A stretch of 64,000 nucleotides of DNA from contig NC_057718.1 in NCBI RefSeq assembly GCF_004010195.1, positions 43,036,395-43,100,394 of the forward strand, read 5' to 3'. The DNA is from Chiloscyllium plagiosum (lineage: Eukaryota). Of this stretch, positions 33,554-63,568 are shown piece after piece. Below the pieces are notes generated by a model. That model worked only from the letters and a program-made list of their open reading frames with translations, was not told the origin of the DNA and ran no database searches. Within the stretch, counting starts at the first letter, position 1. Every line of letters starts with the position of its first letter. The position numbers and the translations under genes were made by a program.

Positions 33554-33643
33554 GCTGAAAATGTGTTGCTGGAAAAGCGCAGCAGGTCAGGCAGCATCCA
33601 GGGAACAGGAGAATCGACGTTTCGGGCATAAGCCCTTCTTCAG
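33554..33643 (-). mobile_element. ~90-bp Penelope-like micro-insertion with minimal hammerhead motif
   Basis: Minus strand CTGAAGA-A-GGGC-TTAT-GCCC-GAA-ACGT-C (33643-33616). TCAGGAATGTC repeated at 33543-33553 and 33640-33650. Confidence 0.85.
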
Positions 33644-33929
33644 GAATGTCTCCAAGACTGTGTCGTGGGTTAGCATAGCAATGATTTGAAAGGTCTGACA
33701 AAAAGAGAATCTGTATGGAATCATAAGCCAGTGATCATCTATGACCAGTTTGTTGGATTAATTTGAGTGTTGGTTAGCAAACTAGTGAACATTGGAATGA
33801 GGCAACAGAATTTTGAAATGTGCTAGAGTTGGGAGAGAGATGCTGAAGTAGTATTTTAGCAAGAAGGTTGGACAATGTTGGATTGGCTTATGAATGGGGG
33901 TTATAAGTAAACCGTTCAAATCTTCGAGG

Positions 33930-34185
33930 ACATCTCTGTAACTGCATGTTGAATGTCACGCCAAATGGACTGATGCAGTTCAAGATGTCTAACTATTACC
34001 CTCTCAATGACAACCACCTGATGAAGGTGCGGCACTCTGAAAGCTAGTGCTTCCAAACAAACCTGTTGGACCGTAACCTGGTATTGTGTGATTTTTAACT
34101 TTGTCCAACCCTCTCAAGGACAATAGGGATATGTAATAAATGTTGGCCTTGCCAGCAATACGCACATCCCGTGAATTAATGTAAG
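33930..34185 (+). mobile_element. LINE 3' tail, copy 2, split by a Penelope-like insertion
   Basis: atggactgatgcagttcaag..accctctcaa [insertion] ggacaataggga..aataaatgttggccttgccagc; collinear with 31910-32075 once 34008-34117 is removed. Confidence 0.7.
34008..34107 (+). mobile_element. ~100-bp Penelope-like insertion with hammerhead motif
   Basis: CAC-CTGATGA-(decayed stem II)-GAA-AGCT-A-GTG at 34015-34049. ACCCTCTCAA duplicated at 33998-34007 and 34108-34117. Confidence 0.85.
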
Positions 34186-34653
34186 TTGGACAAATATCTT
34201 GAACAGAAACACATTGGATACAACTGTCAGGGTAATTGGAAAGATAGATACAGAATGTATATTCCTTTCCACTTCAAATGTTTCTATGTCGCAATGTTTC
34301 ATAAAGTGGCTGCATGTTCGATGACAAAAGTCAACGGTACTCATGAAAGGCCTCAGTTATCCTAATCGCTTGTTGAAATTCACAACTGTTGTTTTGTAGT
34401 TTCAATTTTCAAAGTCCTATAAAACTCTCAGACAAAATATTCTGCAAGGAACCTTTATTTTTCAGGTAACACTGAATTGAGTACAGCGGTGTTGACATTA
34501 ATCAAAATGTACTAATTCAAAGGTGAACTCAGTAAGTAGAGACCTGGCCTATAGAATTCAACATAACCAATTTTAAGTCAAAAACCTTTATTAATCAAAT
34601 GGGGATTTACTTGAAGCTACAACACAGAAAACATATCTTGGCTTTTGCATGTA

Positions 34654-34871
34654 CAATCAGTTCTGCTATAATGCGTGTTTCTTCAGTGCGATTGGCTTTA
34701 GCGTGATTGAAGAATTTAGACCGTTATTTGTAGAATGCAAACTTTCGTTACCTGTATTGTCTAAAACACGATTCTGGCCCCATTAGTTTAAGTAGCATGG
34801 GTCTTGCACGATTTTCTTATAATGGTAAATTTCACGAGAACAGGACTATTGCCATATATCAGAACTGAGTG
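34654..34871. mobile_element. Tc1/mariner-superfamily (pogo/Tigger-like) MITE, copy 1
   Basis: TA-CAATCAGTTCTGCTATA ... TATATCAGAACTGAGTG inverted termini. Homologous in opposite orientation to 36786-37004 (ccccattagtttaa / tttaaactaatggg). Confidence 0.7.
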
Positions 34872-34889
34872 TTTTGAAGAAAACAAATC

Positions 34890-35395
34890 AGACGTTAGCA
34901 TGCCTGTCAAAAATGTGACTTAAAAGTGCAAAGCAGTAATGTTGAAGTTATTTGAGGCTTTGGTGAAGCTGCATCTATGCAGTGTTTGCTTATGATCTGG
35001 GTATCCAGATGAATTATTGATGGGGTTCAGAAGAGGGTTAAAAGGTTAATTCCTGGTTACAGAGGGTTGAGTTCAGAGGAAAGAATGTCTAGTTCAAAAC
35101 CTTCCTCTCAGGAAAGGAGAGGTATTTGAAAGAGCTTTGTAAAAAAGAAATATGCTCATGGAGAATTTGGATCCAGCAGATATTTTTTCTGTCAGATATA
35201 GACTTTAAGAAGTCATGTGAAGGATGCTAACAGAAATATAGACATTTTTAAGTTGTAGTAAGGGAGTGATAGAAATACAGCAGGCTGTGAATAACCATGT
35301 TTGAGTGAGAAGACTGCACAGCTCTGCACAGTTAACTTTGGAAATACAGACAGGAACACATTGGATGGTTTGTGTGATAAGTCGGATGGACAAAG
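34890..35395 (+). mobile_element. Old degraded CR1 ORF2 3' fragment
   Basis: gtaatgttgaagttatttgaggctttggtg..ggggttcagaagagg..agagggttgagttcagaggaaaga parallels 62230-62400. Confidence 0.6.
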
Positions 35396-35399
35396 GATC

Positions 35400-35765
35400 T
35401 CTCCATCCTTCTGTCCATGGACTCTATTTACGTAGCTCACGGAAAGACTGCCAACATGATCAAAGACCCTTCGCTCCCCAGTAATGATCTCCTATAATCT
35501 CTTCTATCAGATAGAAGATACAGAAGCCTGTGACCACATGTACCAGTAGGTTCAGAGACAGCTTCTTCCTGGTCATTATTAGACTATTGAATAGACTCTC
35601 TAGCCTCCAACAATGCTGATCATGCTAACATTGATCTCTCTTGTACGCCCAGTGTGATGTTACCGTATGCCTCTTTCTCATTCTTTTGTTCTGCACATCC
35701 TTGTTTACTATGATCTGCCTGTACTGCTCATAAATAAAGCTTTTCACTGTATTTCAGTACAGATT
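35400..35765 (+). mobile_element. Rex1/Babar-type LINE 3' end
   Basis: Translates to MIKDPSLPSNDLL*SLLSDRRYRSL..TSRFRDSFFLVIIRLLN, matching the IIKDPSHP..LPSGRRYRSL..RF.NSFFP..IRLLN terminal motif; AATAAA near 35733. Confidence 0.75.
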
Positions 35766-35771
35766 TGAACT

Positions 35772-36510
35772 ACAGGCTGGTCTGTTTTCCCTGAAGCATT
35801 GGAGGCTGAGGGGTGATCTCATAGCATGATGGCACAGTGGTTAGCACTGCTGCCTCACAGCGCCAGAGACCCAGGTTCAATTCCCACCACAGGTGACTGA
35901 CTGCACAGGTGTGGAGTTTGCACGCTCTCCCCGTGTCTGCGTGGGTTTCCTCCGGGTGCTCCGGTTTCCTCTCACAGTCCAACAAAAATGTGCAGGTTAG
36001 GTGAATTGGCCATGCTAAATTGCCCGTAGGGTTAGGTGAAGGGGTAAATGTAGGGGAATGGGTCTGGGTGGGTTGCGCTTCGGCGGATCGGTGTGGAGTT
36101 GTTGGGCTGAAGGGCCTGTTTCCACGCTGGAAGTAATCTAATCTAATCTAAAATCACGAGGGGCATGGATAGGGTAAATACACAAGGTCTTTTCACTGGG
36201 GTGGGGGAGTCCAGAACTAGAGGGCATAGGTTTAGGGTGAGAGGGGAAAGATTTAAAAGGAACCTAAGGGGCAACTTTTTCATGCAGTGGGTGGTGTGTG
36301 TATGGAATGAGCTGCCAGAGGAAGTGGTGGAGGCTAGCACAATTACAACATTTAAAAGGCATTTGGATGGGTACATGAATAGGAAAGGTTTAGAAGGATA
36401 TGGACAAAGTGCTGGCAAATGGGAGTAGATTAGGTTAGGATATCTGGTCGGCATGGACAAGTTGGACTGATGGGTTTGTTTTCGTACTGTACATCTCTGT
36501 GACTCAATGA
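35772..36510 (+). mobile_element. HER1/CR1 LINE 3' end interrupted by an HE1 SINE
   Basis: 35772-35824 plus 36149-36510 align with 62401-62817. ORF 36165-36428 (RTRGH..LRGNFF..WNELPEEVVEA..FKRHLD). Confidence 0.9.
35824..36150 (+). mobile_element. HE1-type V-SINE
   Basis: TGGCACAGTGGTTAGC A box, GGTTCAATTCC B box, V-domain gtgtggagtttgcacgctctccccgtgtctgcgtgggtttcctccggg, tail (AATCT)n. Confidence 0.92.
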
Positions 36511-36785
36511 TAAGTGACAATAAATCAATCACTCAATCAACCCTGCCCAAAATCGCTTTGTTGTGCCATGTCATCATTTTCACATTAGCAGAAATTCTGC
36601 AAATGCTTCTAGCAATCAACAAATTAATTTATATGATCAAGAAGTGCTGCAGACAAAGACATGAGATCAGTTGAAAGATTTTTGAAAGAGAGAAGAGAGA
36701 TGGTTCAGGTGCAGACCTTTCATTGGAATTGAGTGTAATAATATTTTTGTTTTACCTAAACATAACGTAAATAATTTACACAGTA

Positions 36786-37004
36786 CAGTCGGATTTGTCG
36801 TAATGTGGTAGTTCCATTCCCGTGCAACCCCGTGTCATAAGAAACTCATGTAATAGTAGCATGGTTTAAACTAATGGGACAGGAATTGTGTTATAATCAA
36901 TCCATGCATTAAAAGTTTGCACTATAGAAACAGTGTCCCCAATTCATCAATTGTGTTACAGCGAATTCACATTAATAAAATGTGCATTACAGCAAAATGA
37001 CCTG
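36786..37004. mobile_element. Tc1/mariner-superfamily MITE, copy 2
   Basis: TA-CAGTCGGATTTGTCGTAATG ... CATTACAGCAAAATGACCTG-TA; TA on both sides. Confidence 0.75.
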
Positions 37005-37257
37005 TAGGCATTTACTTGAAGATCTCTTGTGGGTTTACTTGCAGTTAAACTAGCGTAAACTGTATAGAGTATTTCCCAGATACAGCTGTGCCTTGACTGT
37101 AGTCATGTGATAACATCTGGGTACTTGGCTCATTTGCATGTTGAGCTCTTAATGGGACATTACCTTTAAAGCTGCTTATGCAACATCAAGGTCTGAGGAA
37201 CTGTCTATATTTATTGTTCGAGTTATAGAGTCATAAAGCACAGAACTGGAAAGTAAA

Positions 37258-37358
37258 TTTCCTGTCATCTCCACAGGTGCTGATAGACCTACTGTATGTT
37301 TTTCACATTTTCTGATTTTGTTTCAGATATCCAACATCTGCCACATTTTGCTTTTTGA
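37258..37358 (+). mobile_element. Short Penelope-like 3' fragment
   Basis: tctccacaggtgctgatagacctactg..tttcagatatccaacatctgc resembles 16310-16400. Confidence 0.55.
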
Positions 37359-37879
37359 AGTCAGGTTCCTTTGCCTGTAGTTTGTATATTATGCATAGGA
37401 TGTATAACGTTCTGTAATTTGTTAATCCCCTGACATAATTGGACTTGTCGTAAATTTCTTTACCAAAGGCCACCTGCCATACATTTGGAGGGGGTGTCGG
37501 GTAGTAATTGCTACTTCCTAAATGAATGTGTAGCAACAAATCTCATCTTAATAGTACAAATTGACAGAGCAGTAGATTACCCTCTTAGCCTGGAATTTGT
37601 TTGGGGCCATCAATAAAAATGACTAATTTGATTATTGACCAGCTCTGCTCTTGCATTTTTATAGTGATTATTATACAAGTAATAATTGAATTTAGAGAAG
37701 GGAAAGATTAGGCTATAATTTTCCCCTTCCTAAAGCAATGAACAAACTTACAGATAAATAGGGACTACAATTTATGCAAATCTCAACTAGCAAAATAAAT
37801 ATAATAGTTCATATCCAATAAATTTGAGTCAGATATTTCTTTTAGATTTGAACAATATTTCAACGGAGATTACCTATTT

Positions 37880-38300
37880 AGGATCACAGAAATTATAGCA
37901 GAAGGTCATTTGGCCCATCATTTCTGATGCTAAGGCTTCAGCTCTATTTATCTACATTAACCTTACTTCCTCTCCTTTTTCCAAATTCTTTTACATTTCA
38001 TTTCAAATACTTATCCAGTTTCTTTAAAATGTTGCAGCACTCACTGCCTTAATTGTAGTTTGTGGTAAGGACTTCAATATTTTAAAGATATTCTTGTGAA
38101 CAAAATCTCTATTAACTTTCTCCTACATTCTTCTAATGATAATCTTCTGTCTGTGACCCTTTGTTACCAATTCACTAGCCACTGGAAACAATCCAACATT
38201 GTTCACCTTCTCAAAACCTTTTTGTAATGTTGAAAATCACTATTGCGTTTCCTTAATCTTTTATACTGAATTGTTTCTCTCCTTGCTTATCTTACCATGA
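37880..38300 (-). mobile_element. Degraded CR1 3' end
   Basis: Begins agaaggtcatttggcccatc (reverse CR1 tail), followed by pyrimidine-rich reverse ORF2-like sequence. Confidence 0.55.
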
Positions 38301-39351
38301 GTCTGATGCCTCTGTGATTGGGAAATAATGCTGGTTTTCAGCTGAATCTTGAAGTGTTTACTTTTGCTGTTTATAGTTTAATGGGCACAATAGTCTTGTC
38401 CTGCATGAATGAATATCAGTGTTGTGTGCTAGGGCGCCACGACAGATGATACCTCTTATCTCCTGTGATTTGGAATTTAAAAGCCAGTGAAGCTCAACAA
38501 TTTTATATTCTGATTTAAATGGGCTGAAATGGTACTGTATTTAAATTTCAAAACTAAAACAAATGTAAATGATGCAGTGCTGTTTAATGCATATCAGGTG
38601 AAACCGCAAGTTTGCTTTTACACTCCATTCATTTGATATGAGGTTTCAAAACTAAAACTTTAGCACTTGAACAGGATTAGATATTTTTAAATGAAGTTAG
38701 CTTGTATTTTACATTTTCAATAGTTAGATTGAATAGACCTCTACCCTAGATTATAGCATGCAAATTAATCTGACATGTCCTGATAAGATAATAATCTTTA
38801 TCACATTTACAGTGTATATGCAAAGTTATTTTGTATTTTTTTGCCTTCTTTAACCACTAGTTTTGAGATCACATGTTAAAATGACTAATGATTGCAATCA
38901 TTTGTAATTATTGAAAAAGCTGAAACCCTGTTTATTGGCTTAGTTAAATAACCTCCTTGAAACTCCCACTTCAAAGTAGTTTGCGAATAACAAGCTTTTT
39001 TGCAGAAATAAATTTGGCTTTTTTGTAAAGTACATTTCAGAGTAAATGATGGATTCAGAAATCTGTGATGCTATGAGTTGAACTACTGTTGAGAGCCTAG
39101 AGAACTTACTGTTGAAGAAAGAAAGATCTTAAATTTGACACCTTCAGGGTCCCCAAAACACTTCAGAACCAATAAATTGCATTTGAAGTGTTTTTATTTC
39201 AGGTTAATGGAGCTGCCAATTTGCGCACAGTCATGTTTCACACAAGCAGTAATGAGGTAAATGACCTATTCGTCTACTTTGTGGCTGTTGATTGAAGAAT
39301 TAAGCATTTTCAAAAATATATCCTGCTCTTCTTCAAACATTACTTGAGGGA

Positions 39352-39505
39352 AGGAATTCCCTCCCCAATGGCATTGTGGGTCAACCCAGAGCAGGTGGAC
39401 TGCAGCGGTTCAAGAAGGCAGCTAACCATCACCTCCTCGAGCAACTAGGTTTGGCGGTAAATGCTGGCCAACCAGCAATGCCCACATCCCATAAATTAAT
39501 AAAAC
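39352..39505 (+). mobile_element. LINE 3' tail, copy 3, nested in the DeuSINE
   Basis: ggaattccctccccaatggcattgtggg..tggactgcagcggttcaagaaggcagct..taaatgctggcc..gcccacatccc. Confidence 0.75.
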
Positions 39506-39904
39506 AAAATATTTTTTAATCCAGTTGGATATGCAGCTATGTCTTTAGTTTATAGATTTGACAGCGAGGACAGCAGTCCCTCAGTCCTACACAAAGTGTT
39601 AGGCCTATGTTATGTGCTCAAGTCCCTGGAGTTGGGCTTAATCATAGGCCAGATTTTCAAAGGGGGTTCAGGAACCTGAAACCCAGACACATTCCTAATT
39701 CCAAACCACTGCTTCATGCATATCATGTATGCAATGTGATTTTTGAAAGTTAGTGTCCTTATTGGGCAGGAGACAAGACCAATCTGTCTGGCACAAGTAG
39801 CAAAGGTAGCAGTTACCTTTGGGACAGCCTCTTCCTTGCAGAAGACTGTAGGTAGGTGCTCAGATATCTAGTGGAATAAATACATGAGACTGAGGGTGAC
39901 TGGG

Positions 39905-40027
39905 AGAAAGTAAGGACTGCAGATGCTGGAGATCAGAGCTGAAAATGTGTTGCTGGAAAAGCGCAGCAGGTCAGGCAGCATCCAAGGAGCAGGAGAATCG
40001 ACGTTTCGGGCATGAGCCCTTCTTCAG
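39905..40027 (-). mobile_element. ~120-bp Penelope-like micro-insertion with minimal hammerhead motif
   Basis: Minus strand CTGAAGA-A-GGGC-TCAT-GCCC-GAA-ACGT-C (40027-40000). Perfect 12-bp AGGGTGACTGGG at 39893-39904 and 40026-40037. Nearly identical to 33554-33643. Confidence 0.9.
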
Positions 40028-40164
40028 GGTGACTGGGTCAAACTGAGTGAATGAACTTAATATGCACAATATCTGGGCTGGGCACATTAGTTTTCAATAT
40101 TAAGATTTTTCAATTCTGCTTGTTTTGACCAACAAAAAAAGTACTGGAAAAGGATTTATCTGTA

Positions 40165-40470
40165 TTGCTGGTATCAGCTGAAAAAAGAGAGATGTTGTTG
40201 AAGCTTGTTACTTTGAATCCCTTTGAACAGATTTGCTACACAACCAATTGGGAAAAGGGAGCTGATTGGTTGGCCGGAGTATGCTGATTGAGGTATTGCC
40301 ATGGCAATGCACCAGGAAACTGTTGTCTCAAGCCTTTGTTCAACTTCAACTCAGGCAGTAAAAGTCGTCCCTTTAAAGTTTGGTATTCTTGTGATTTTGT
40401 CCTGATGAATGGAAGATCAAAAGTTTCAACAGCATGTCTGCTTTTACAGCAAATCTCTAGTTCTATACTA
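40165..40470. mobile_element. Degraded fold-back Penelope-like fragment (43.7-kb family)
   Basis: ttgtcCTGATGAatggaagatcaaaagtttcaacagcatgtct (40397-40439) matches 43655-43697. 40177-40210 is its reverse complement. Confidence 0.65.
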
Positions 40471-42830
40471 GACATGTCAATTTATCTGTGTGATTTGGCA
40501 GTCCGTGCCTCCCTTTAAAGGTGGTCTATTTGGAACACAGAAAACAAATATGAGGCATGCATTTAACTGAGTGATTTCCGTCCCAGAGCAACCCCTGTCC
40601 TTCCCACCTCTCTTACTAGAACTGGAAGGTTTGGTTTAGGTTTTTCTTAACATTCTTTCGTCCTGCCTGACCAAATAATTTTCCTTATTTTTGAGAATCA
40701 AAATCCACATCTTACCCCCATGCTAGTGTTGCGAAGGGATTGAGTGATTCAAACATGCAGAAATTGGAAATGTAGATTTCTTCACCAATAGCCGAAACCC
40801 AAAGGCTGCACATTCCTTGAATACACTAAAGCGAAGTTTGTTGGCTACACTTCCTATAATATATACAGCTTAAACTGCTGTTTCACAGTCTCAGTCTTTG
40901 CTTTTAAGGACAGCACCAGGGAACAAATATCAGATTTGTTGATTTTAATATATTGTCATCCTTTGGAAATAGATTTAATATTTTTTACTTCTAATAGCTA
41001 AATTGTTGCATTTAATTTTACTTTGCAACAGTAAATAAGTAATGGTGAAGTTGAGGCAGTAGGAGGTGATTTGATTAACTGTGAGTGACAGTTAATACAT
41101 CAGCAATAATCATTTGAGCATTATGGCATCTTTGTATGTTGCAGAAGTTATTACTTCATCTTCAGTTACATTGTATGTGAAGTATTTTTTAACTTTTAAT
41201 CTTACCGTTGATGTGGAAAATTAATTTTATGCTTTAAATAACTATAATCCAACAAGGAGAAATTATTCCTTTAATTACTGTTCCATTTACCGTCCATTTA
41301 GCTACTCTAAATGTTTGTCATGCATTCGCTTTCTTTTGTCAAAACACATGATAGCTAACTTAACCACTCAGTTTGCCACAAAATCTTTCTTCTCATTAGA
41401 AATTATGGACAAAAGACATTTGTGTGAATTTGTAGCTCTCTGATAATAACTGACTTCAATCATATTGTCCTTATCCAAGTGCTGGAATGAAATTGTTATC
41501 AAAGGGCTTTTTTACTGTTTACTTTGCCTAATGGATTGAATGGAGAAGAGAATCAATGGTAGTTGTGGAAGCATCAGTGAGATGCATTACCCCACCATTG
41601 AATTTAAAGGACAGAATAGGTGTAGCATGCTTGAGGAGGGAACTAAAGGACAGAAACAAAAGTTAATGGGAAAAATAATATTGTAATTAATTTACCCCAA
41701 TTAAGAAAAAATGAAGAATAACTAGATGCTCACAGTAGATGTTGCTAAATTAATATTAAAATCTAGGTATTGACACCATAGTGGTATGCATAGTTCTCAA
41801 GTAGATATCAGAGTGCGGCTAAGTAAAAGTACTTCTGGGGAGCTTGGTTTAACATCCAATGCTAAACAGTTCAAATAAACCAGACTACAGTTTAGATCTG
41901 TTCAGGTAGTGCTGGATATAAATGATGCAAACATTTATATTTTGTATTCATACTAACCCTATTTCTTTTAATGTATTTTTCCCCCTCTTGTAGTGGCAAG
42001 CCTTGGATTTTCTTCAAAATAATAACATTAAATTGGGTAGATATACAGAAATAACTTCCTCTGCTTGGGTATTCCACAACACGTGGTATGATCTTAAAAT
42101 GAGAGAGAAGCGTTTTGTGGTGAAATCTGAAAGCTGTTTTTCATATAAAGTGAAGTAAATAGCTGGATCTCTTCCCAAAAGGCTTTGAATGCTCCGTCAG
42201 TAGAGACAGTCAAAATAGATTTCTGTTGGGTTTGAGTGCGAAAACGTATGAAATAAAGACAGGTAAATGTAGTTAAGGTCAAAGTGAAACAGTTGCATGA
42301 CTGAAAGGCCTGCACCTGTTCTAATCTTTCTATTTTCAGTGATCAAGGAAAAATACTGCACATACTATACATATGAAATCAGAGCAAAAAATGCTGGTAA
42401 CTCTCAGCAGATCAGACAACATCTTTGTAGAGAGAAGGACATTTAATGCTGCCAATTGGTAGCCTTTCGTTCCAACCAGAAATATTTACCGATTGAATGG
42501 ATCTGACGCAGATGAAAAGGCACAGTAAGAGAGGTTGCAGGCTTTGGGGAATGACAGTGTGAACAAAAGGGAAGGTTGAGAATAGGATAGAGAACAAGAT
42601 GATCAGATGATAAACAGGAGGATGGCACAAGGCCAAAGGACTTGTTAGAGGGGCAAGTAAAGAACTAAAAAGTGTACAGAGGAGGCATTCAGAAGAAAAC
42701 GTAGAATCATTACAACAGCTGCTGTTCAAAAACAACAAAAAGGGTACATCAGTTGTGATCTGAATTTTTTTGAAATCCAAAAGGTTCTAAGATTGCTAAC
42801 CAACTAAAAGATGTTGATGCCCCCGTGAGC

Positions 42831-43740
42831 CACATATCCCACCAATTGGCTGATTGACTCAAATAACCTGTTCTGTTCTTTATTATAGGCAGAGTACAGA
42901 CTATACTCACCAGTGTACACTTGCAAAACCCAGAGCAAAATATCTACTGTTAGATGTAATTCCTCAGTTGGGTAGCACTTGCTGAACAAGCTGAGGGTGC
43001 TGTTAACTGTACTAACAACCAATGCAATATAATTAGTTAAACTAGTAATGTGACTCACATAGGCTTAGCGATGTTTGGGAAGATTTGAGGCTCAGGTTGA
43101 TGATAAGTATGTAAGTTAGCTTGCTGAGCTTGAAGGTTTGTTTTCAGACATTTCGTCACCGTACTAGGTGACATCATCAGTGAGAGTGTCTGGTGAAGTG
43201 CTGCTGGTATGTCCCGCCTCTCTACCTACCTTCTCTTGAAAAAAAGGAACCAGAAATGACATCACCCACTTTAAGAAACTAAGACCTATAAATAGAGAGG
43301 CAGGACATACCACCAGCGCTTCACCAGAGACTGTCACTGATGATGTTACCTAGTATGGTGACGAAATGTCTCAAAGCAAACCTTCAAATTCAGTGAGCTA
43401 ACTTACATACTTATCACATAGTCTTATTAGGAGCAAGATACATTTGAATGCACTGATCTGATCTCTGTAAACTAAAGTTGCTGTTCAAATTTTGTAACCC
43501 TTTGAATGAATTTCAAGGGAGCTTGGCAACGTGATAGTTTCCTGTAGTCCATCACAGTGCCATAGTCAATCAGAGTTTATTTGCCAACCAATCAGCACCC
43601 TTGAGTCCAGTGTTTTGAATTGTTATGATCATTTGAAATTTGGCATTCTTGCGTTTGTCCTGATCAGTGCAAGACGAAAAGCTTCGGCAACATGTCTCTC
43701 TTTTCAGCAACATTCAAGTTCTGTACTGCCAAGCGAACGA
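42831..43740 (+). mobile_element. Penelope-like element (middle layer): GIY-YIG C-terminal relic and 3' terminus with hammerhead motif
   Basis: Homologous to 16945-17110 (STVRCNSSVG*HLLN). Terminal TTGTC-CTGATCA-GT-GCAAG-AC-GAA-AAGCTT-C-GGCAA at 43655-43690. Confidence 0.75.
43068..43416. mobile_element. Fold-back Penelope-like insertion (inner layer) with two hammerhead motifs
   Basis: 124-bp inverted arms at 43101-43224 and 43293-43416. Cores at 43337-43370 (+) and 43180-43147 (-). TCACATAG(G/T)CTTA duplicated at 43055-43067 and 43414-43426. Confidence 0.88.
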
Positions 43741-44129
43741 TGAGCTTCATTGGAAGAGTGTAGGAGGCCAAGGACAGATAAGTCAGAGTGGGAGTGAGGC
43801 GCAGAATTAAATGGCTGGAAACCCGGGGCCATGCTTTTGGACTGAATGGTCGAACCCATGGTAAGTCAGATTCTAGTGAGGCAGTGAAAAAATGTGCTTA
43901 ATAAATTTAAAAAACCTTTTCTTTATCCATGCTTTTCTTTTCATGTACTACAAAATGAATAGTCATTGAAAGTGCTAAATAATTGTAAAAAAATTTAACG
44001 ACGTAAGATATAGTTACTTTCCATGTCAAATTACTGCATGATTTAAAAAAAAGTACTCTCTTGTTACATTTTATTTCAAATAATAGAAATGAGACGTAGT
44101 CAGGATTTGTTTGACGTAAGGTAATCATG

Positions 44130-44790
44130 AAGTTGGAATCATGTGCAGGTTCCATGCCTACACTGGTGGGCAGTGGGACCATAGTGGCCACCTTTTTGGT
44201 GGCACTTCTAAATTTCCAGTAAGGACAATAGGCAGCTCTTCAAGCTTCCATCCTAATCACAGAGCCTCTGAGAGAGAGATGGCTACCGCCAAGGCTGCAG
44301 GGAGAGCAGTAAAGACTCTGTTCCATTAGTAGGGGCAGACAGACCAGGCACGCCGTTCAGAGGGAAAACTTTGCCGTGTCGACCCTTTGACCTTCTCCCT
44401 GGGTTTTGGAGCTTCTGTCTCTGATGGCTTCCCCTGGAATGCTGCAGGGAGCTTTGCCTCAATGTTTCCAGCTCAGTGCTTCTCCCTATAGGGTGTATGG
44501 CTGCCCTGTTGTTGGTGAAACACCGACAGCTTGGAAAGAGGGCCCACCATTGAACCTTTAATCATCTAAGTTGGCTCACTGCCTTTGGTCAGTAGATGGT
44601 CAGGCCACTTGGAGGTATCTCTGGCTACACTATTATTGCTTTCAGGCTGCCACCCCAGACGGTTGTAATGTCTCCCTCACTGTATATTGCATGTTGGTTA
44701 CCAGAAGCCATGTTTATCCCACTTTGCCTGAGAATTTGTTTAACGATTTTCTCCCCTGGATCCAGGAATGGTTCAAAATGTCCGAACCAA
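44130..44790. mobile_element. Degraded non-autonomous DNA transposon-like block
   Basis: GC-richer island resembling 25532-26255 and 51398-52002; termini unclear. Confidence 0.35.
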
Positions 44791-51329: not shown

Positions 51330-51395
51330 AAATAAAAATAAAAGTACTGGAAATACTTTGCAGGTCAGGCAGCATCTCTGGAGAAAAACAAATCT
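51330..51395 (-). mobile_element. Short Penelope-like 3' fragment
   Basis: gtactggaaatactttgcaggtcaggcagcatctctggaga shares gcaggtcaggcagcatc with 33582-33598. Confidence 0.65.
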
Positions 51396-51397
51396 AA

Positions 51398-52002
51398 AAG
51401 GTGGAATCTTCTGCTCCCTGTTAGTGGGTAGCTTGGAGGTGGGAAGAACACGCAACTTGGTGGGATGGTGGTGAACCTCACTACCTTCCTGCCTCTAGCA
51501 GAATAAAATTCTGGATGGGCATGCTAAAAGCCATCCTCTCTGTCCTGCTTCCCATTTACACTTTCTAAGATCAGATAATGAGCTCTTGAGGGCCTTAGCC
51601 TGTCACCAGTGATGTTAACCCAGCTTCAATCAGCCTGTTGCTATGCAGAATGCATGACATCTGCCACAGTGCAGGCAACCTTGGTGGGCGGTTGTCCCAC
51701 AATCAAAGGGACTGGACATTGGCTTGGATGTTCTCCACTGGGAGCCAACCCTCAGACCTTGCTTTTGACCCAAACAACCCCCATTACTTACCTTTGTCCT
51801 TGGTCCTCAGACTCTGGGAGTACTCGTAGCCGCATCTACGGGGGCCTCTAATTGTCCGGCAGCTCTTGTTAATTGGGACCTCTTTCCCTGGAATGCTGAT
51901 TTGGGGTGTCAGCCGACTGGTGGCCTTATGGCTCAAAGGGCCTTTCTTGGAAGTGGTAGCATGGGTTTCTTCACCCAGAAGACATCTCAAAAGATTTTGC
52001 CC
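51398..52002. mobile_element. Non-autonomous DNA transposon, Harbinger-like TIRs
   Basis: AAGGTGGAATCTT ... AAGATTTTGCCC imperfect inverted termini; interior similar to other GC-richer blocks. Confidence 0.5.
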
Positions 52003-52304: not shown

Positions 52305-52440
52305 AAAATACACATGGACATAAATAGTTTGGAATGTGTGGATAAATTGCAGATGGAAATTGTTGCAGAGAAATGTAAAGTGATATGTTTTAGTGAGAAG
52401 ATTAAGGAGAGGCTACAAAACAAAAGGGCACAATTGTAAA
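52305..52440 (+). mobile_element. Old CR1 ORF2 fragment
   Basis: Parallels 61960-62085 (LQMEIVAEKCKVICF versus WQIKFNSDKCEVLHF). Confidence 0.6.
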
Positions 52441-52619
52441 CATCGCTTAGCTGTACACACTATCACCCAATCTGGACACTGACAGTATCTCTGACTTGTC
52501 TTTCCTTGTCCTGCAGTTTTGGGATATATCCCATCAGCTGGAGCTACCAGACTCATAGTACTTCTGTATCTCCTTGTATTTGAGTGCACACACAAAGTCT
52601 GGAAATTTGTCATCGTCGT

Positions 52620-53560
52620 CAGAAGTCCTCACTCAAGACATGTTTTAGTCAGGAGGTTCTGACACACCCTGAGAAGGATAGCCTATGATATCGGCCCAGT
52701 GGCTTGAACACTGTCAGTCAACTGTATGAGTGATCAGAGTCCGGTTTCTCTCCTTGCAGTGAATGAGAAGCTGGTTTTCAGGCAGTTCCCAACCATAATT
52801 GGCTTTTTCTGCCCTATTGTGATTGCCTTCTCCTACAATGAGAGGTTTTAAGGCTGATAGAAGTAGCTGTCACAGTTGTTAATGCTGGTGCAGATCTGGA
52901 AAAGATGGTGAGATTTTCTGAGAGGGGGTGTAGGCAGTGCATAGGGCACAGAGGCTAAATGGGGAGATGGGTTTTGGATAGGTGAAAGGCAGTGCGGGCA
53001 AATGTTGCATGAATTAATGAGAGGGGTAGAATCTGAATTAGCTTGGGAAATGGGTGCAGGAGCAGAGACGGAGTGACTGTGAAATATCGGAGAGATGATG
53101 ATGGCAGTTACTGACCCAGCGCAGAAAGTCTTTGACCATTTTCCTTCACTGCCAGGCATTCCTTTAGATGGTTGAGACTGCAATGACCAGATGACAATCT
53201 TGGACCAAGCTGTCAGGGTCTGATGGTAATGCATCATATACCGGTCCTGGGATAAGATGATATTCTGCTCTCTGCACCATCATGTCTACCAGGACCTGCA
53301 GATGCCCATCCTGCAAGCTTGGGGCCAATTTCTGCTTATTTGCCACATTTGAGGGAAAATATCAGGAACCATCAAGGGCAACTTCAGACTGACTGTGCAT
53401 AGCATGGTGCACATTGGCCTGGGCGCGAAGAATGCTAGTCAATTCCAGGATATCCTGGCAGTGGTAATTTTTTCTGGGTACAGTGAGATGGTGGAATCTG
53501 GCTAGCATTGGACGAGAAGGGTGCCTTTGAGGCGTAGTTAGTTAATGAGGTATATTTGGG
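52620..53560 (-). mobile_element. Harbinger-type relic with Myb/SANT-like gene remnant
   Basis: The minus strand of 53346-53120 gives KQKLAPSLQDGHLQVLVDMMVQR..QTLTAWSKIV.. (MSANTD-type domain, frameshifted). A C/T-rich intron-like stretch follows, ending CTTTTCCAG| near 52895. Confidence 0.65.
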
Positions 53561-56429: not shown

Positions 56430-56862
56430 GGGCAGAATTTTGCAAGATCAGAGTTTGTGTGGAAAGGAGGGCAGAACGGTCAAGGGCAAGGAGGATGGCT
56501 TTCAGTGGAACACAGTTTCCTGAAGTGTCCTGAGTTCTCTTGCTGGAGAGGCCAATGCAACTCTGCACACTGGAGGTGACAAACTGGCCCTGGTCTTAGC
56601 CACCATTCATGCAGCATAGTGACAGGCCCATCTTCAGCTGAGTTAACTCGAAAACCCTGGAATTCAACCTTTCAGTGATGATTAGTTGGTAATTAAGGGC
56701 TTTAGATGGTGGCAGAGTCAGAAGGTCAACAATGGGCCTCCTGTCCTGAATCAAATTTTGGCAGAGGCAAGAAGGTAGTAGGATACAGGTACACCACCAT
56801 CCGCCTAATTAAATACCTTCCTATGGCTAGGCCCGGCACCAGTGGGAGCAGGAGATTCTATT
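56430..56862. mobile_element. Non-autonomous DNA transposon-like block
   Basis: Starts GGGCAGAATTTT and ends near GAGATTCTATTC; interior shares gcctaattaa/ttaaggg motifs with related blocks. Confidence 0.45.
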
Positions 56863-59509
56863 CCTGATGTCCACGCACCAGCCTGGGTCAATGAATAGAA
56901 TAAGTGCAGAAGTAATGCGATATAGTATGGCTTTTGCATCACTTGCCAAGTGTTACTAATCTCATCATCTGAGAAACTGATTTTATAATTTTGAATGGCA
57001 TTGTTTTCTCATAGAAATATAAGTTACAAGGCTGTCACTACAGGTGTTGCATCACTTGAGTACTTAAAATAGGTGAATGATATCGAAGCGATAAATGCTC
57101 CTGTTACAGCACAAATTTTAGGTATATTTAATGCTTGCAGTGTTGGAAAGTTGGTATGAAATTCCTGATCTGGAATTGCAAAATTCAAATTTATCGTGCT
57201 TATTCAGCCCCAGCAGAACTTTCATGTTTTTAACAATGGGAGCCTTAGCAGGAAAGTAGATAATTCTAGTATAACTTTTGTAGCCAGCACATATTCATGA
57301 AATATATTTGAAATGTGTCTAATGACATGAATATGATCATGTGATTGTGAATACATGTGTGTGCATGACTATGTGAAATGAGACACACATTTCCACTTAA
57401 ACATGAAGTCTCGTCTGGTTGCACCAAAGCACATAAATATGGAAGGGAATTAGATTGCAACCAAAATAATATAGCCAATGTCTGTGAGACAACATTGTTC
57501 AATGCATTTTATTCATTCTATCATCCTATCAATAAAGCTGGGGATTTATTAGAGATTTATCATATTAGTTCAAAGGTATCATTTTACCCACAGTTAATAT
57601 TTATATGCTTCATGCTTGTATTACCTTAAGCAAGTTTATAATTGTAAATAAATGTTAATGTTCAGCTACTGAGTCATAATTTGGGAGTGCAACTGAAGGA
57701 GAGTTTTTAAGTTCTTAAAATCATTATGACAATTTAATGACAGTTTGAAAACATAGAAAGGATATATGTCCTGATTTTTGTATTAGTGCCAATTGTATCA
57801 GTATTTTGTAGAATCTCAGAAGGAGATGGGTGTGTCTAGGTCTTTGAAAGAGCTACCAATTAGCCTCACTGTCTTGCTTTTTCGTGATACATCTCTAAAC
57901 CTTTCCTTTTTAAGTATATATCTAGTCATCTTTTGAAAGTTTAGTGGCAATCTAAAATTTGGAGACTTAATTATTTAACTATTGGAAATCAACTAACTAT
58001 TGTACCAAATGTTTCAACATTTGATTATATTTATTGGCCTGTGGGTAGATGGGGTCCAGTGACTGTATTCCAATCTAAATGAATGGAGGTGATGATTATT
58101 TTAGAAATTGCAGCATTATTCTTCCAAGCAGAACAACTGAGAATATGTAAGCACTAAATGTTAAAAAAATGTTCCCCTTTATACAGATTAAAATGATCAA
58201 GTTGATAATGGTGAAAACATGGTTGTGTTTGGGTATTATAGCCATTTTCATCCCTAAGGTGCTCATTATCAGCTTGAGTGATATGGCCATAGTGCACTCT
58301 AGCATGATGATGATGCTACATTTCAGTGATCAACCATGAAACTTGCGCCAGGAATGCGTTTAGGAATAGTTCCAGGCCAATTAAATAAACAAATCGTAAA
58401 GTGAATAGTTGAAAGGCTTAATATAGATAAACGTTGCCATGTTTTAATCAGTAATTTGTTTGTTCTTTTTCCCTTTGCAACTGTGTGGTTCTTCATCTTC
58501 ATTAAGTAATTAAAGATTAAGATGTAATATTATATTTTCTTTCCTATGAGGAACAAGTAGCCCAAATATTACTTCATTTGGTGAAGGTAGTAAGCTAAAT
58601 ATATATTTTAAGATTTTAGAAGGACCAGTATCTTATTTTGAGCTCTGCAGTATTGCTTTCCTTGTTGAATTCTATTCTTTACCACATTACCTCACCACAT
58701 TAGCACTTGCATCTCCCTCAGATGGCATTCTGTTTCCATTCCATTCACAGTGGCCAAGGATCATATCACATAGGCACTTAGAAATACAATGCGCACTACC
58801 CCTGAGAACACAATTGCTTTCACAGTCAAAAGTATTGATCAGCTCTATTTCTGGTTTTCCATTCAGTCAGAGCTTTTGCTAGGAGTTGTTTCTTTATCAT
58901 TGGGGAGGGAAGATTTAAATAAAAACTGGATGTCCTTTTTTACTCCCACCTCTCCATCTGCAGTTGCTTTAATATTATTCTCAACAGATTTAATTGCTTC
59001 GTTGATATGTTTTATAATCTGCCAATACTGACATTATCAGGTACAATATTTATCTATATCACTGAAAATCTGATTTTTTTAGAATTTGTTAAGCATTTTT
59101 ACTTTGATATTAACGAGTATTACAATTATTTAATTATTTGAGCTTTAGTTGCAAAACATAATTTGTGTGCTGCTTTAGTGAAAGGGAAAAAACATTGTGC
59201 CCATAAGAGGTGATGACAATGTGCAATATTACATAGAATGGCATGCAGGTTGCCTATCATAATAAGAACAATTTAGGTCAAAATGTATATTGTATGGTAA
59301 AATTTGTTTCAAACTGGGTACAGTTCAATTTCAGTTACTGACCATGAGAGGTTTACAGAGGTCAAACGCAGAGAATTCCTTGCACTATCTGCTTTCATTA
59401 TCCAAATTGACATTGTTTCTGCCGCACTTCTAGAAAGTAGCTGTTGCTTTTTGTTTATCTTGGGGGAAATTATTGTGACATGGGATAACTGGAAACCATT
59501 TTTAGGTCA

Positions 59510-59950
59510 GTGAAGATAAAGCTGATGGGTAAGCGGGACTTGGTGTGGGATACAATTCTGGCAACAGACGTTTGAGCGAATTGAAGTTTTCAAAGGGAGT
59601 ACAATGGAAGGCAAGGAATGGACACATTAAAACAGTTGAATCTGGAGCTGGCAAAGACTTAGATGAGGATATCAGGTGCAAATGAGGTTGAGACAAGCCT
59701 TTCACTGCTTGGCAAGGCTCGGAACTCTGATTGGAGAAATTGAAATTTAATTTCAGGGAAGATGGGAGAATACAGATGGAAAGGAAGTGGAAAGGGAATT
59801 TGAATATCAATAGCTTATAAAGATAGAAAGTATCAAGCTGTATTTTGAGGCAAGAAGTGATGTTGGCAGTCTTGAAATAGAAGAGGCCTGAGGAAGTGAA
59901 ACTATTTTTAATGTCAGACATCGGCATCAGAAACAGAAATTAATTGTGAA
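59510..59950 (-). mobile_element. Degraded L2 LINE ORF2 fragment
   Basis: Purine-rich + strand resembling reverse L2 ORF2 (LIHAFVTSRLDYCN..LQ.IQN region) in decayed form. Confidence 0.5.
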
Positions 59951-61433
59951 TGGGGTCAAGTGCATACAAGATATAACTCTCATGGACATGATGAGGCCAA
60001 AAAGAACTTTGGGTGGATGGGAGGGAAGTTAAAGGGAAATAAAGGCTCAATTTTTACAAAGAAATGTTTCTCAAGCCTAGCTATTTGGTTGTATGCCCTA
60101 CTAATGTGCCTCAGTGTCAAACTTGGCTCAATAATATGCCAGAGAAGTGCTTTGGTATGTTTAATTATGTTAAAGATGCTACATATGTACAAGTTGTTGT
60201 TTAGATTGTGATAAGAAGAGTGAAGAAACCTAGAGATCTAGCTTGAACACAAGAGTTGTCACATCCAGTTCTAACACTACAGTTTGGACAGGATACAGTC
60301 TGAAGTGGCAATGGCCATGTACTCCATGGATTTGGCTATTCTAAATTCATTCTGTTTGATTCAAAATGGGATTCATCGGTACACAGTGTAAAAAAGATGT
60401 TACACTGCTGTTGGTTGAGATTAGGAACGTACTCTGAAACTGGCTTTCTAGCTCACAACAAGGTGTGATCATAATATTTGGAACTGTACTGTACAATGTG
60501 ACAGATCAAGCTGGTGAAAGACAGTTTCCTGGAGGAGATCAAATTCTACATTTCTTTTCACATTCAGAGTTCGTTAATTTGATAACTTTGCTGTCACTTT
60601 CACGTCACCAAATAACCAAGTCGCAATATAAACCTGCCTTTAAAGTAACTGTCTTCTGCAGCCGACTGGAACACATGTTCAAAGAACTCTTAATTGATGA
60701 GATTTGGTAAATGTTCAGACTGAGACCTTGTGCATTATTACTAGAGGTGTTACTTTTCCATTGATATCACAAGTCCAGTCCATGTCTTATGAATATAGAA
60801 TTTATAATAGGCATTCATTTTTTCACAAAATGTTAATGACTGTTTAATTAATAGGATCTTTAACCATTAAATTATGTTTCAGTAACAGGTTTTTCACTAT
60901 TCTTGAGTTTAGCAAGTATGAGCATTTATATATACTTTTATGAAAGATGACCACTATCTAAACAGGTACATAGCTACTTGGTAACAAAGATTATCCTGAT
61001 TCTCACATAAAGCTCTATAATAAACTGAGTGTCACTTCCCTAAGCTGTTGGCCTCTACCTATGATGCTAAAGCAAAATTTTAGGTCAATGCCACATATAC
61101 CCAGACAGGGAAGCAATCAGGATAACAATCATTTTGTATGTTGGGCAAATTGTTCCAACTGCGGTAAAAGTTTGAGAAGACATCAGCTTCCTGCTTGTAG
61201 TTGCTGTTTGACTGTGGAACAGTTTTTTTTACCACAGTGACAAGGAGCAGCTCAGGAACATATGACTTCACCTTGGATTTGTTTTTCTATATTTCTAAAT
61301 AAGCACCTTATCTTTGTTTTTTGGTGATGAGTATGCTGAGACTGGAATAATCAGTTGAATAATTGTGGCTGCAGTTTTGAGCATTGATTGGTCTGTGCTC
61401 AAACTATGAATCTTGGCTGTTACTTTTCAGATA

Positions 61434-61613
61434 AAAATTACACCATACCAGGTTATAGTCCAACAGATTTATTTGGAAGCATCAGGTGGTTGTGGATGAA
61501 GGAGCAGCGCTCCAAAAGCTAGTGCTTCCAAATAAACCTGTTGGACTAAAACCTGGTGTTGTGTGATTTTAAACCTTGTACACCCCACCCAACACCGGTA
61601 CCTGCAATTCATG
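61434..61613. mobile_element. Fold-back Penelope-like insertion
   Basis: Arms 61434-61481 and 61523-61570 are inverted copies. Perfect 12-bp ACTTTTCAGATA at 61422-61433 and 61614-61625. Hammerhead remnant GATGA-A-GGAGC-AGC-GCTCC-AAAAGCTA. Confidence 0.88.
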
Positions 61614-61948
61614 ACTTTTCAGATACTCGTGCACATTCTAATGGAGTGATGGTTTGTGTTGGTTTTCCAATATGACTGATAACCAGAAATGGCAAATAGT
61701 AGCTTGAATGTTTTGCAATAACTTTGATCTTTGCAGTCTCATTCACAGAGGGGTTTCTGCCATTCATTTGACAAAGTTATGATGGCGGAGCAGGAATGGC
61801 TCTTTGAAAATTCCATTATTTCTGTGTATAATGGAAGGCTAAAGCAATGGGTTACCGAACATGAACTAACTCTAACCCTGATGCGACACCATAAATTAAA
61901 ATTTTAATCCATACTAATGGATGTAGGTATTAGATGGAGGCCTAATCC

Positions 61949-62817
61949 TTACCTCAGATTACAACAGGATCTGGACCAGGTGGGCCAATGGGCTGAGAAG
62001 TGGCAGATTAAGTTTAATTCAGATAAATGCGAGGTGCTGCATTTTGGGAAAGCAAATCTTAGCAGGACTTATACACTTAATGGTAAGGTCCTAGGGAGTG
62101 TTGCTGAACAAAGAGACCTTGGAATGCAGGTTCATAGCTCCTTGAAAGTGGAGTCGCGGGTAGATAGGATAGTGAAGAATGTGTTTGGTATGCTTTCTTT
62201 TATGGGTCAGAGTATAGAGTACAGGAGTTGGGAGGTCATGTTGCAGCTATACAGGACATTGGTTAGGCCACTGTTGGAATATTGCGTGCAATTCTGGTCT
62301 CCTTCCTATCAGAAAGATGTTGTGAAACTTGAAAGGGTTCAGAAAAGAATTACAAGAATGTTGCCAGGGTTGGAGGATCTGAGCTACAGGGAGAGGCTGA
62401 ACAGGCTGGGGCTATTTTCCCTGGAGCATCGGAGGCTGAGGGGTGACCTTATAGAGATTTACAAAATTATGAGGGGCATGGATAGGATAAATAGACAAAG
62501 TCTTTTCCCTGGGGTCGGGGAGTCCAGAACTAGAGGGCACAAATTTAGGGTGAGAGGGGAAAGATATAAAAGAGACCTAAGGGGCAACTTTTTCACACAG
62601 AGGGTGGTACATGTATGGAATGAGCTGCCAGAGGATGTGGTGGAGGCTGGCACAATTGCAACATTTAAGAGGCATTTGGATGGGTATATGAATAGGAAGG
62701 GTTTGGAGAGATATGGGCTGGGTGCTGGCAGGTGGGACTAGATTGGGTTTGGATATCTGGTCGGCATGGACGGGTTGGACCGAAGGGTCTGTTTCTATGC
62801 TGTACATCTCTATGACT
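61949..62817 (+). mobile_element. 5'-truncated young HER1/CR1 LINE (ORF2 C-terminal part of reverse transcriptase)
   Basis: Uninterrupted ORF to 62741 with LQQDLDQ..WAEKWQIKFNSDKC, RDLG, LYRTLVRPLLEYC, LERVQKR, RRLRGDLIE, RTRGH, WNELP; CR1 3' UTR. The first ~10 codons of the 61917 ORF are flanking DNA. Confidence 0.95.
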
Positions 62818-63448
62818 AAGTAACATGGGCGGAGACACTTTGATTTAGTCCATTAAAACTTTTCCCCCACAATTTGCGGAAACATTTGCACTTTTTAAAA
62901 TTTTCATTTGTGCTAATTTAAGTTGCATTTGACAATCAGGGCACAAATTGTGATCAAGATTGCACCAATTTTCTGAATTGAAGCTTTTCCTCCAGTTTCC
63001 ATTTAAACTTACTGGTGAATCGGAACATAGAGCAATTGGGCCATGTTAAGTACATAATTTTCTTTGCTTTAATTTTTTTTTGCATATAGTTTGTGTGGAC
63101 AGCTGAAAATGGGTTTATCACCAAAAAAAGGACATAACACTTGGTGCCTATGTTTTGTGGGCCATACTGAACAGCATTCTGTGTAGTTTAATAGTGTGGG
63201 TACTGAGAGTCCCTCAAGTAAACAAAATAGGCATATTGTGACATCAGTTAGCTGACTTAACTCTATCAGTGCCATTTTCAACCCAAACATCCGACCTAAT
63301 ATTCTCTTTTAACCATGCGTGGCCGTGCATGTGTTCAGTAGCAGGAATGATTCCCCACCAGTGCTGTTTAAAGGAGCCATCAGTTTAGTTGCTGATTAAT
63401 TTCTACTGGCTAATGCTCAGTGAGCACAGATGGATTAACCTTTATAGA

Positions 63449-63568
63449 AGAAAGTGAGGAATGCAGATGCTGGAGATCAATGAAAAGTGTGGTGCTGGAA
63501 AAGCACAGCAGGGCAGGCAACATCCGAGGAGCAGGAGAATCAATGTTTCAGGCATAAGCCCTTCATCA
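63449..63568 (-). mobile_element. Older ~120-bp Penelope-like micro-insertion (39.9-kb family)
   Basis: Aligns with 39905-40025. Minus-strand core decayed: TGATGA-A-GGGC-TTAT-GCCT-GAA-ACAT-T. No clear TSD. Confidence 0.85.

Follow-up and report, generated by a model that had tools for sequence, protein, structure and literature searches.

The window analysed here is a 64,000-nt stretch of Chiloscyllium plagiosum contig NC_057718.1, and the original prediction concerned the region from 33,554 to 63,568. It contains short, hammerhead-bearing, Penelope-like insertions of three families (Table 1). Offsets take the first C of the CUGANGA box as zero (C3 = 0); those at 23450, 37258, 29750 and 15888 and that of the long 43337 arm were placed by eye. 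By pattern and stem check, the ribozymes are minimal type I hammerheads as defined in PMC4209133. The copies at 33643 and 40027 retain intact CUGANGA and GAAA boxes, the extra base before stem II, G10.1-C11.1 and a palindromic stem III; these features are partly decayed in other window copies, and stem I has merely 2–3 contiguous pairs. An Rfam scan of the window reported no hammerhead and listed no tRNA-, 5S- or 7SL-type match.

The units show several hallmarks of endonuclease-positive Penelope-like elements: a hammerhead in the terminal repeat, an optional 30–40 bp tail and a short TSD without a poly(A) tail in the DNA. TSDs of 8–12 bp were found at six of the 11 candidate insertions tested, and none at the 63449 copy or at the old copies. 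Endonuclease-positive Penelope-like insertion units comprise a pseudo-LTR, a 30–40 bp tail and an adjacent inverted copy (PMC8557442, PMC3846280); ours are alike in having a minimal hammerhead in the terminal repeat, an optional 33-nt tail, head-to-head arms and 8–12 bp TSDs. All window copies are single units or inverted pairs, and in all three inverted insertions an inverted, 5'-truncated copy adjoins the 5' end, with the tail on one arm only. These short units contain no open reading frame with a telomerase-like reverse transcriptase and GIY-YIG endonuclease. A search for the parent protein with the 40–41 aa frames of families 1 and 3 gave no credible match, two weak matches being rejected as not reverse transcriptases, and the family motifs had no matches in viral or metagenome contigs.

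Table 1. Insertions and related features in the window (coordinates of the 64,000-nt stretch)
Feature	Position	Strand	Details
Family-1 short Penelope-like insertion, no tail	33554..33648	-	Box 33643-33637; predicted cut after 33616
TSD of the 33554 copy, 11 bp	left 33543-33553, right 33640-33650
Genome-wide peak of family-1 5' ends (-3 to -5)	33646..33648	-	33647 is the putative +1 A
Family-2 short insertion	34008..34107	+	Box 34018-34024; predicted cut after 34046; poly(A) signal position 34056; 10-bp TSD 33998-34007/34108-34117
Family-2 RNA polyadenylation place	34071..34076	+	506 reads with poly(A) loose ends after 34071
Family-1 insertion with 33-nt tail	39905..40028	-	Box from 40027; 12-bp TSD 39893-904/40026-37
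Older family-1 insertion with tail	63449..63568	-	First matching base is box position +1
Family-2 head-to-head insertion	61434..61613		12-bp TSD 61422-33/61614-25; forward arm with tail from 61495, beginning +2..+4; tailless inverted arm to about 61494, ending -11..-9, with its stem II and cut site deleted
Family-1-related head-to-head insertion	16205..16405		12-bp TSD 16193-204/16406-17; forward arm with tail from 16272, junction +2..+4; tailless inverted arm (16271) begins about +32, near predicted cut
Family-2-related copy running upstream of box	15888..15991	-	Stem II partly deleted
Family-3 head-to-head insertion	43063..43413		Boxes 43180 minus and 43337 plus; 8-bp TSD 43055-62/43414-21; arms extend to about -49 and about -100
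Family-1-related copy, counter-example	23450..23529	+	Begins about +40, downstream of ribozyme

Positions of the 5' ends

Seven of 14 window junctions fall at -11..+5 of the box, for which uniform truncation over 100–300 nt gives P = 0.005 to 5e-6, the range having been chosen after looking; decayed old copies at 42355 and 51346 could not be placed and are omitted from the 14. The original prediction put element boundaries within a few bases of the box at 33643, 40027 and 63568, and the junctions indeed lie at -5..+4, -1..+2 and +1, respectively; the first may be anywhere in its range because the 11-bp TSD and the element overlap by nine matching letters (33640-33648). The inversion junction at 61495 likewise lies by the box, as does that given as ~16268, whose position is 16272. 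At 34008 the boundary is 10 nt from the box as described, but two extra letters come first and family sequence begins only at 34010 (-8, the putative +1), directly preceded by G where the family has C. As for the counter-examples, 23450 and 43063-43413 stand, the latter with both arms upstream of the boxes, whereas 37258 is doubtful, since its sequence, now decayed, may extend as far as the box. Upstream extension past the box is also seen in an old copy near 29750.

Genome-wide 5' ends were counted as loose ends in contigs from three runs of three related species; these have most insertions in common, and long copies that collapse in assembly are under-represented. Among the 24 of 1,145 rows listed, family-1 5'-side loose ends number 374/378/291 at -5, 285/336/228 at -4 and 208 (one run) at -3 and none lie inside the box; single box positions, absent from the rows listed, apparently have fewer than 208–241 each, and unlisted rows average roughly 16–48 by a rough estimate. 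The family-1 ends thus pile up beside the box, on its upstream side and a few bases away, and the smooth distribution by which the original prediction was to be refuted is not seen. The -4 ends carry unrelated flanks (agreement of 0.31–0.32, compared with 0.32–0.33 simulated for unrelated flanks). A junction exactly at G5 in all copies was dropped as a model, no box position being among the rows listed. For family 2, no 5' rows are among the DNA rows listed, and its -8 end is therefore drawn from a single copy in the window, together with one inverted arm and a small number of joints.

Another reading is ordinary random 5' truncation, in which microhomology, the end of reference homology or assembly bias would create the pile-up. 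In its favour are the microhomology of nine letters at 33643 and three at 40027, a reference that matches the family to -5 only and the preference of de Bruijn contigs for junctions with unique flanks. We nevertheless regard it as quite improbable: the -3 and -4 rows, with their unrelated flanks, are 4–17 times as large as spill-over from longer copies carrying a substitution would make them, and the same drop appears in raw reads. RNA-read depth declines by 0.5% per base over 33600–33623, already by 3.9% over 33630–33639 and by at least 12% over 33644–33648, the last a gross bound that includes read-end and trimming effects. The consensus of the -3 and -4 rows keeps a trace of family upstream sequence.

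The boundaries had also been said to lie upstream of the predicted self-cleavage site, which holds for the family-1 peak, since it precedes the cut by about 32 nt; most templates would thus have been uncut. An origin of the ends in ribozyme cleavage or in circular RNA, as in retrozymes, would fit the inverted arm at 16271, which begins 2–5 nt past the predicted cut. Given the distance of the peak, the absence of the cut position 33616 among the rows listed and an RNA depth that does not fall across the family-2 cut at 34046 (792 then 864), we regard such an origin as very unlikely, the least probable of those considered. Non-LTR retrozymes resemble the present units in being short, non-coding, hammerhead-bearing and related to Penelope terminal repeats (PMC7229834; 10.64898/2026.07.22.740005), but are tandem, ribozyme-cut and circularized; here we find dispersed monomers or inverted pairs, no tandem array in the window and unit ends away from the cut. 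Head-to-tail tandem joints of short units occur in the contigs, at 1–4 contigs per listed row.

Putative start-site signals, polyadenylation and priming sites

The -4 ends mostly carry an extra letter: in all three DNA runs, the first loose one is C in the cDNA, corresponding to G in the RNA, the chance of which per run is at most 2e-4 at the window GC of 0.39 and 0.007–0.018 at a GC of 0.44. Joints from 33647 have C as the first inserted letter in four of the four listed, one of them explained by family sequence. This letter resembles the G left by an RNA cap, although a subfamily letter at -5 could also give it; full-length L1 insertions are marked by an extra G (PMC11702581). With upstream letters taken from contigs, position -4 in family 1 fits the A of a YYANWYY initiator, a motif that chance would supply at 1.3% per base; in family 2, an initiator-like motif likewise has its A at -8. 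In the 15888 copy, a TATA-like word with one mismatch, at 15991, precedes by 31 nt an initiator-consensus A at 15960, itself 7 nt ahead of the box. In family 3, TATAAAT occurs at -50; this TATA box, at 43287, predicts +1 near 43318 (about -19), where the base is G, not A. The initiator and TATA motifs are short. A splice acceptor was rejected as the cause of the -4 end, there being no AG before it in the upstream letters and no consensus in the flanks. Among the RNA rows listed there is no place where many molecules begin; none of the RNA sets listed covered 39000–44000, which speaks neither for nor against transcription there.

Measured from the putative +1, the first 3' end lies at 94, 98 and 96 nt for the three families; measured from the box, the values are 90, 90 and 77 (n = 3). 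Copies have 3' ends at two fixed positions, 33 nt apart: the 39905 copy is 33 nt longer than that at 33554, and loose ends at 33554 run on into the tail. At 34071 the depth of sense RNA drops by 73% and that of antisense RNA by 12%, downstream of a poly(A) signal (AATAAA or ATTAAA), whereas family-2 DNA copies end at 34102–34107 or later, about 30 nt past the polyadenylation place. Host transcripts may be the source of these poly(A) reads. In the anole element Poseidon PAc, the tail is set by two internal priming sites that lie downstream of the hammerhead, and uncut RNA is the template with no reads starting at the cut (PMC11167929); the present units are probably alike in this. The template printed in that paper has, as judged by eye, the same order of start-site motifs.

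Because reverse transcriptase approaches an RNA fold from the 3' side, a structural stop would be expected on that side rather than once the fold has been copied in full. The original prediction had proposed the folded hammerhead as a reverse-transcription stop or template-switch signal; a protein-bound hammerhead might act likewise. Four window junctions at +1..+4 and a compatible fifth suit this proposal, as do two copies with deletions across stem II, a family-1 peak at the 5' edge of stem I (which lies at almost the same base as the putative RNA start) and an anole protein that assists its hammerhead (PMC11167929). Yet the family-1 peak lies 3–5 nt upstream of the box and of the entire fold, reached only once the fold is copied; the offset varies by family (-4, -8); and the one plain family-2 copy defined by its TSD starts 8 nt upstream. 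The initiator A and the cap-like extra letter weaken the proposal further, the extra C being left unexplained. In the same study, hammerhead mutants in vitro left the insertion size unchanged, although core mutants may keep the fold, and the template there had 126 nt of upstream sequence. A stop at the fold is thus not the best cause and is, in our judgement, unlikely.

Proposed run-off at the RNA 5' end and relation to known systems

The clustering of ends is real; the hammerhead box is probably a bystander. The discrete class of 90–130 bp ribozyme-headed insertions that had been proposed does exist, and we think it likely that its members are run-off cDNAs, internally primed about 95 or 130 nt from the RNA 5' end and stopped at the cap. 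Reverse transcription would start inside the RNA and run off its capped 5' end, predicted 4–19 nt before the box, yielding short 'strong-stop'-like insertions; the ribozyme would simply adjoin the transcription start, directly behind it. The order TATA, initiator, hammerhead, poly(A) signal and priming sites would let the terminal repeat act like U3-R-U5. Priming on the 5' copy would give a short cDNA joined directly to the target, often with a cap-derived G, or joined with the loss of a few bases through microhomology, which may have produced the window junctions at +1..+4. Head-to-head forms would arise when the short cDNA is joined to another cDNA, one primed on the opposite strand of the DNA. 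The four window junctions at +1..+4 lie 5–12 nt inside the putative start, which counts against run-off. In D. virilis, the start of Penelope precedes the ribozyme by about 120 nt, or 45 nt after splicing (PMC2377424, PMC4209133), and a start next to the ribozyme is therefore not universal.

The short units might instead be self-propagating, non-autonomous, SINE-like masters with an internal promoter and a 5' end at their own start site. Their copy number is very high (68,367 contigs for two families in X1, an incomplete count), D. virilis Penelope has an internal promoter (PMC2377424) and non-autonomous terminal-repeat derivatives have been proposed (10.64898/2026.07.22.740005). Short copies are, however, without the TATA word of longer copies, many copies extend upstream into common family sequence (323–378 loose ends at -5 show a family consensus), and a solo transcript would terminate at the poly(A) signal, short of the priming site; we give this reading a low probability, similar to that of a stop at the fold. 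The step from 5' end to RNA start is common to the masters and to run-off cDNAs.

In retroviruses and LTR retrotransposons, minus-strand strong-stop DNA is primed near the RNA 5' end and runs off at the cap, and the repeat spans the start site to the poly(A) site. The proposed run-off would share near-5' priming, termination at the cap and a repeat between the putative start and poly(A) site; it differs in that the primer would be nicked target DNA rather than tRNA, there would be no integrase and the run-off product itself would be inserted. TATA and an initiator were noted in the repeat of Adineta Pen2a (PMC8557442, PMC3846280). Truncation in Penelope-like units has been described as variable, whereas here the family-1 5' peak is sharp, with a cap-like extra letter, and the poly(A) site precedes the priming site. 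Regeneration of the Penelope-like terminal repeat has been said to have 'no obvious mechanism' (PMC2377424), and internal priming was shown only in 2024 (PMC11167929); that paper assumes a multi-copy mRNA and, in the main text consulted, discusses neither the insertion 5' end nor run-off products or jumps. Repeat regeneration would be linked with internal priming by a peak of 5' ends at the probable cap site and a poly(A) site that precedes the site of priming. No such run-off model was found in the literature searched, and some older papers may discuss template jumps. If true, run-off would account for the thousands of solitary minimal hammerheads in animal genomes, short copies would mark the element's transcription start and these elements would replicate partly like retroviruses; the model is directly testable with the existing in vitro system.

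More tentatively, and with the odds against it, replication could be a hybrid of target-primed reverse transcription near the mRNA 5' end and a strong-stop cDNA that must jump to the 3' repeat for the open reading frame to be copied. Failed jumps would then leave the mass of 90–130 bp ribozyme-headed insertions, jumps to other RNAs would give chimeras and captured host genes, the hammerhead would be placed in the jump region, and repeated jumps would give partial tandems and a regenerated pseudo-LTR. Head-to-tail tandem joints of short units occur in the contigs, at 1–4 contigs per listed row.

Hammerhead-headed insertions in the window

The window has a base composition of ~39% GC and carries the minimal hammerhead motif in three repeat families, the assignment of which as Penelope-like rests on structure; a search for a parent ORF linked none to these units. 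Target-site duplications (TSDs) of 8–12 bp surround six of the 11 candidate insertions. The original prediction that ends cluster near the hammerhead CUGANGA box holds at its coordinates, except for 16268, which is corrected to 16272. Seven of the 14 junctions fall within a 17 nt interval, with P ranging from 0.005 if truncation is uniform over 100 nt to 5e-6 if it is uniform over 300 nt, for an interval picked post hoc and with several offsets read by eye. Among the junctions, only the inverted arm at 16271 would fit a template that had been cleaved. In all three inverted insertions the arms overlap and the tail (an optional 33 nt 3' extension) is found on a single arm, so that two templates or two passes are needed.

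Insertions and junctions in the window (offsets in nt from the first C of the box; minus, upstream)
Feature	Position	Offset	Remarks
Family 1 copies	33554, 39905, 63449		Relatives at 16205, 23450 and older ones
Family 2 copies	34008, 61434		Relative at 15888
Family 3 copy	43063–43413		
Old family-1-related copies	29647–29790, 42355–42460, 51346–51400, 37231–37345		Decayed hammerheads; original prediction listed only 37258
Junction	33643	−5 to +4	Nine letters common to element and TSD
Junction	40027	−1 to +2	
Junction	63568	+1	No TSD found
Junction, forward arm	61495	+2 to +4	
Junction, inverted arm of 61434 insertion	beside 61495	−11 to −9	
Junction	16272	+2 to +4	
Junction	34010	−8	Two extra letters precede family sequence
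Junction, inverted arm	16271 (16268–16274)	about +32	2–5 nt past predicted ribozyme cut
Junction	23450	about +40	Outside cluster
Junction	37258	uncertain	Counted outside cluster
Family 3, both arms (running upstream)			Outside cluster
Copies running upstream	15888, 29750		Outside cluster

Two family-2-type copies show deletions across hammerhead stem II at 61480–61486 and 15944–15953, with the cut site lost in one; slippage over the hairpin is a possible source. A 41-codon open frame (43055–43180, minus strand) has its start ATG within the family-3 box, and the anole Poseidon element PAc is similar; a parent protein was sought for this frame and none was found.

Genome-wide 5' ends of family 1

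Window positions 33524–34123, whose match extends as far as −5 in family 1 and −8 in family 2, served as the reference for DNA contig sets of three related species (84, 85 and 62% scanned) and for a single run of raw poly(A) RNA reads (2% scanned). Matches comprised 68,367, 63,707 and 51,018 contigs, the first set being counted incompletely, assembly being biased against long young copies and the species sharing ancestry, and 3,882 RNA reads. Loose ends, where aligned contigs or reads stop matching the reference, were taken from 24 listed of 1,145 rows, six per run. Among these, the family-1 5' side shows 374, 378 and 291 at −5 (agreement 0.38–0.39, the flank consensus being the family upstream sequence), 285, 336 and 228 at −4 (0.31–0.32) and, in one run, 208 at −3 (0.31). 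Simulated agreement is 0.32–0.33 for unrelated flanks and already 0.35 with a 10% family share; the −5 rows are therefore partly copies continuing upstream, and the −3 and −4 rows, at 4–17 times the spill-over expected from mutated long copies, are mostly true ends. Rows outside those listed, among them all box positions and that of the predicted cut, apparently hold fewer than 208–241, with a mean of roughly 16–48. In the RNA reads, not subject to assembly collapse but weighted by expression, the gross loss of depth per base is 0.5% over 33600–33623, 1.9% from there to 33630 and 3.9% on to 33639, against 12% or more over 33644–33648.

The 5' ends of family 1 peak immediately upstream of the box, with a shoulder extending into it. 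The predicted pile-up is thus confirmed, and for family 1 genome-wide (peak rows −3 to −5); the proposal of a discrete class of short ribozyme-headed elements is probably right. Attribution of the ends to the ribozyme fold, as a stop or switch signal, is probably wrong, as the peak lies upstream of the box. A fold-dependent reverse-transcription stop, though less likely, would fit family 1, where stem I starts at the inferred RNA start.

Marks of a putative RNA start, and the RNA 3' end

Upstream letters from the contigs place the A of a YYANWYY initiator at −4 in family 1. On the cDNA strand, the −4 ends have C as their first loose letter in all three DNA runs, which is unlikely from random flanks and would require a fixed extra C in at least roughly 10–15% of the copies; all four listed joints from 33647 also start with C, and the 34008 copy has G in place of the family C. 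Full-length L1 insertions are marked by an extra cap-derived G (PMC11702581); alternatively, the C could be a subfamily letter at −5. In the 15888 copy, a YYANWYY A stands 7 nt upstream of the box and follows a TATA-like word by 31 nt; in family 3, TATAAAT at −50 would put +1 near −19, at a G. From the putative start to the first 3' end the three families measure +94, +98 and +96, and from the box 90, 90 and 77. TATA and initiator are reported in an Adineta repeat (PMC3846280), and the printed anole template (PMC11167929), by eye, likewise runs from a TATA-like word through an initiator-like A to the box.

In family 2, poly(A) follows 34071 in 506 RNA reads, downstream of a signal (34056–34061) that alternates between canonical AATAAA and ATTAAA (of 803 sense reads, 787 carry T at 34058; 251 carry T at 34057) and is used in RNA. 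Depth at 34071 falls from 803 to 220 in sense and from 245 to 216 in antisense; 347 reads extend upstream into family sequence, with no drop across the predicted ribozyme cut (792, then 864). DNA copies end at 34102–34107 or at the tail farther on. The RNA 3' end precedes these ends, so the signal-polyadenylated RNA lacks a 3' priming site and has one only near its 5' end. The poly(A) reads may stem from host transcripts borrowing the element's signal, and family-2 copies may provide 3' ends for host transcripts.

Proposed run-off model and known elements

In the anole element, reverse transcription begins at two internal sites, which define the tail; each target strand is cut and extended, with uncut RNA as template (PMC11167929). 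Run-off is the simplest reading of the 5'-end peak, the RNA 3' end and anole priming combined. Priming on the 5' repeat at +95 or +130 would give cDNA terminating at the cap, which could be joined to the target directly, after trimming at microhomology (giving the +1 to +4 junctions), or head-to-head to another cDNA made from the opposite strand. The ribozyme would adjoin the junction because it comes first in the RNA. Upstream-extending copies may come either from read-through transcripts or from jumps to the 3' repeat; the jump would be the novel case. Family 1–family 2 joints occur in three species, both tail-to-tail (34102/34103 to 33554/33558; as many as 14 contigs in a listed row) and head-to-head (33643–33648 to 34009; 0–2 contigs per run and row), most rows having unknown letters between partners; they may reflect insertion into each other's tails together with two different RNAs at one site.

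Minimal hammerheads are known in Penelope-like repeats, mostly as single truncated copies (PMC4209133), as are tails and inverted arms of such insertions (PMC8557442). Retrozymes differ in being tandem and ribozyme-cut (PMC7229834; 10.64898/2026.07.22.740005). Penelope of D. virilis has its start at base 371 and an intron (416–491) that ends at stem I, and the paper finds no evident way for it to regenerate the repeat (PMC2377424). Passages in PMC8969392, PMC6765202, PMC12602865 and PMC12910113 yielded nothing on 5' ends, and the literature searched, with key subscription papers and anole Fig. S2 outside it, describes no cap-site peak or strong-stop model (short cDNA run off the RNA 5' end). 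The finding, with its putative start site, turns an open question on the Penelope-like class into a directly testable one.

Elsewhere in the window, 3' ends of a LINE-type element that we take to be CR1-like lie at 61908–62817 and 35772–36504 (mutual identity 87%), with a reverse transcriptase fragment at 61908–62741 (weak RVT_1 match, E 0.03). The decayed fragments 16944–17103 (no Pfam match) and 42833–42989 resemble each other (71%) and are reminiscent of the GIY-YIG region at the C-terminal end of Penelope-like proteins. A CpG-rich stretch at ~9700–9900 looks like a host gene promoter.
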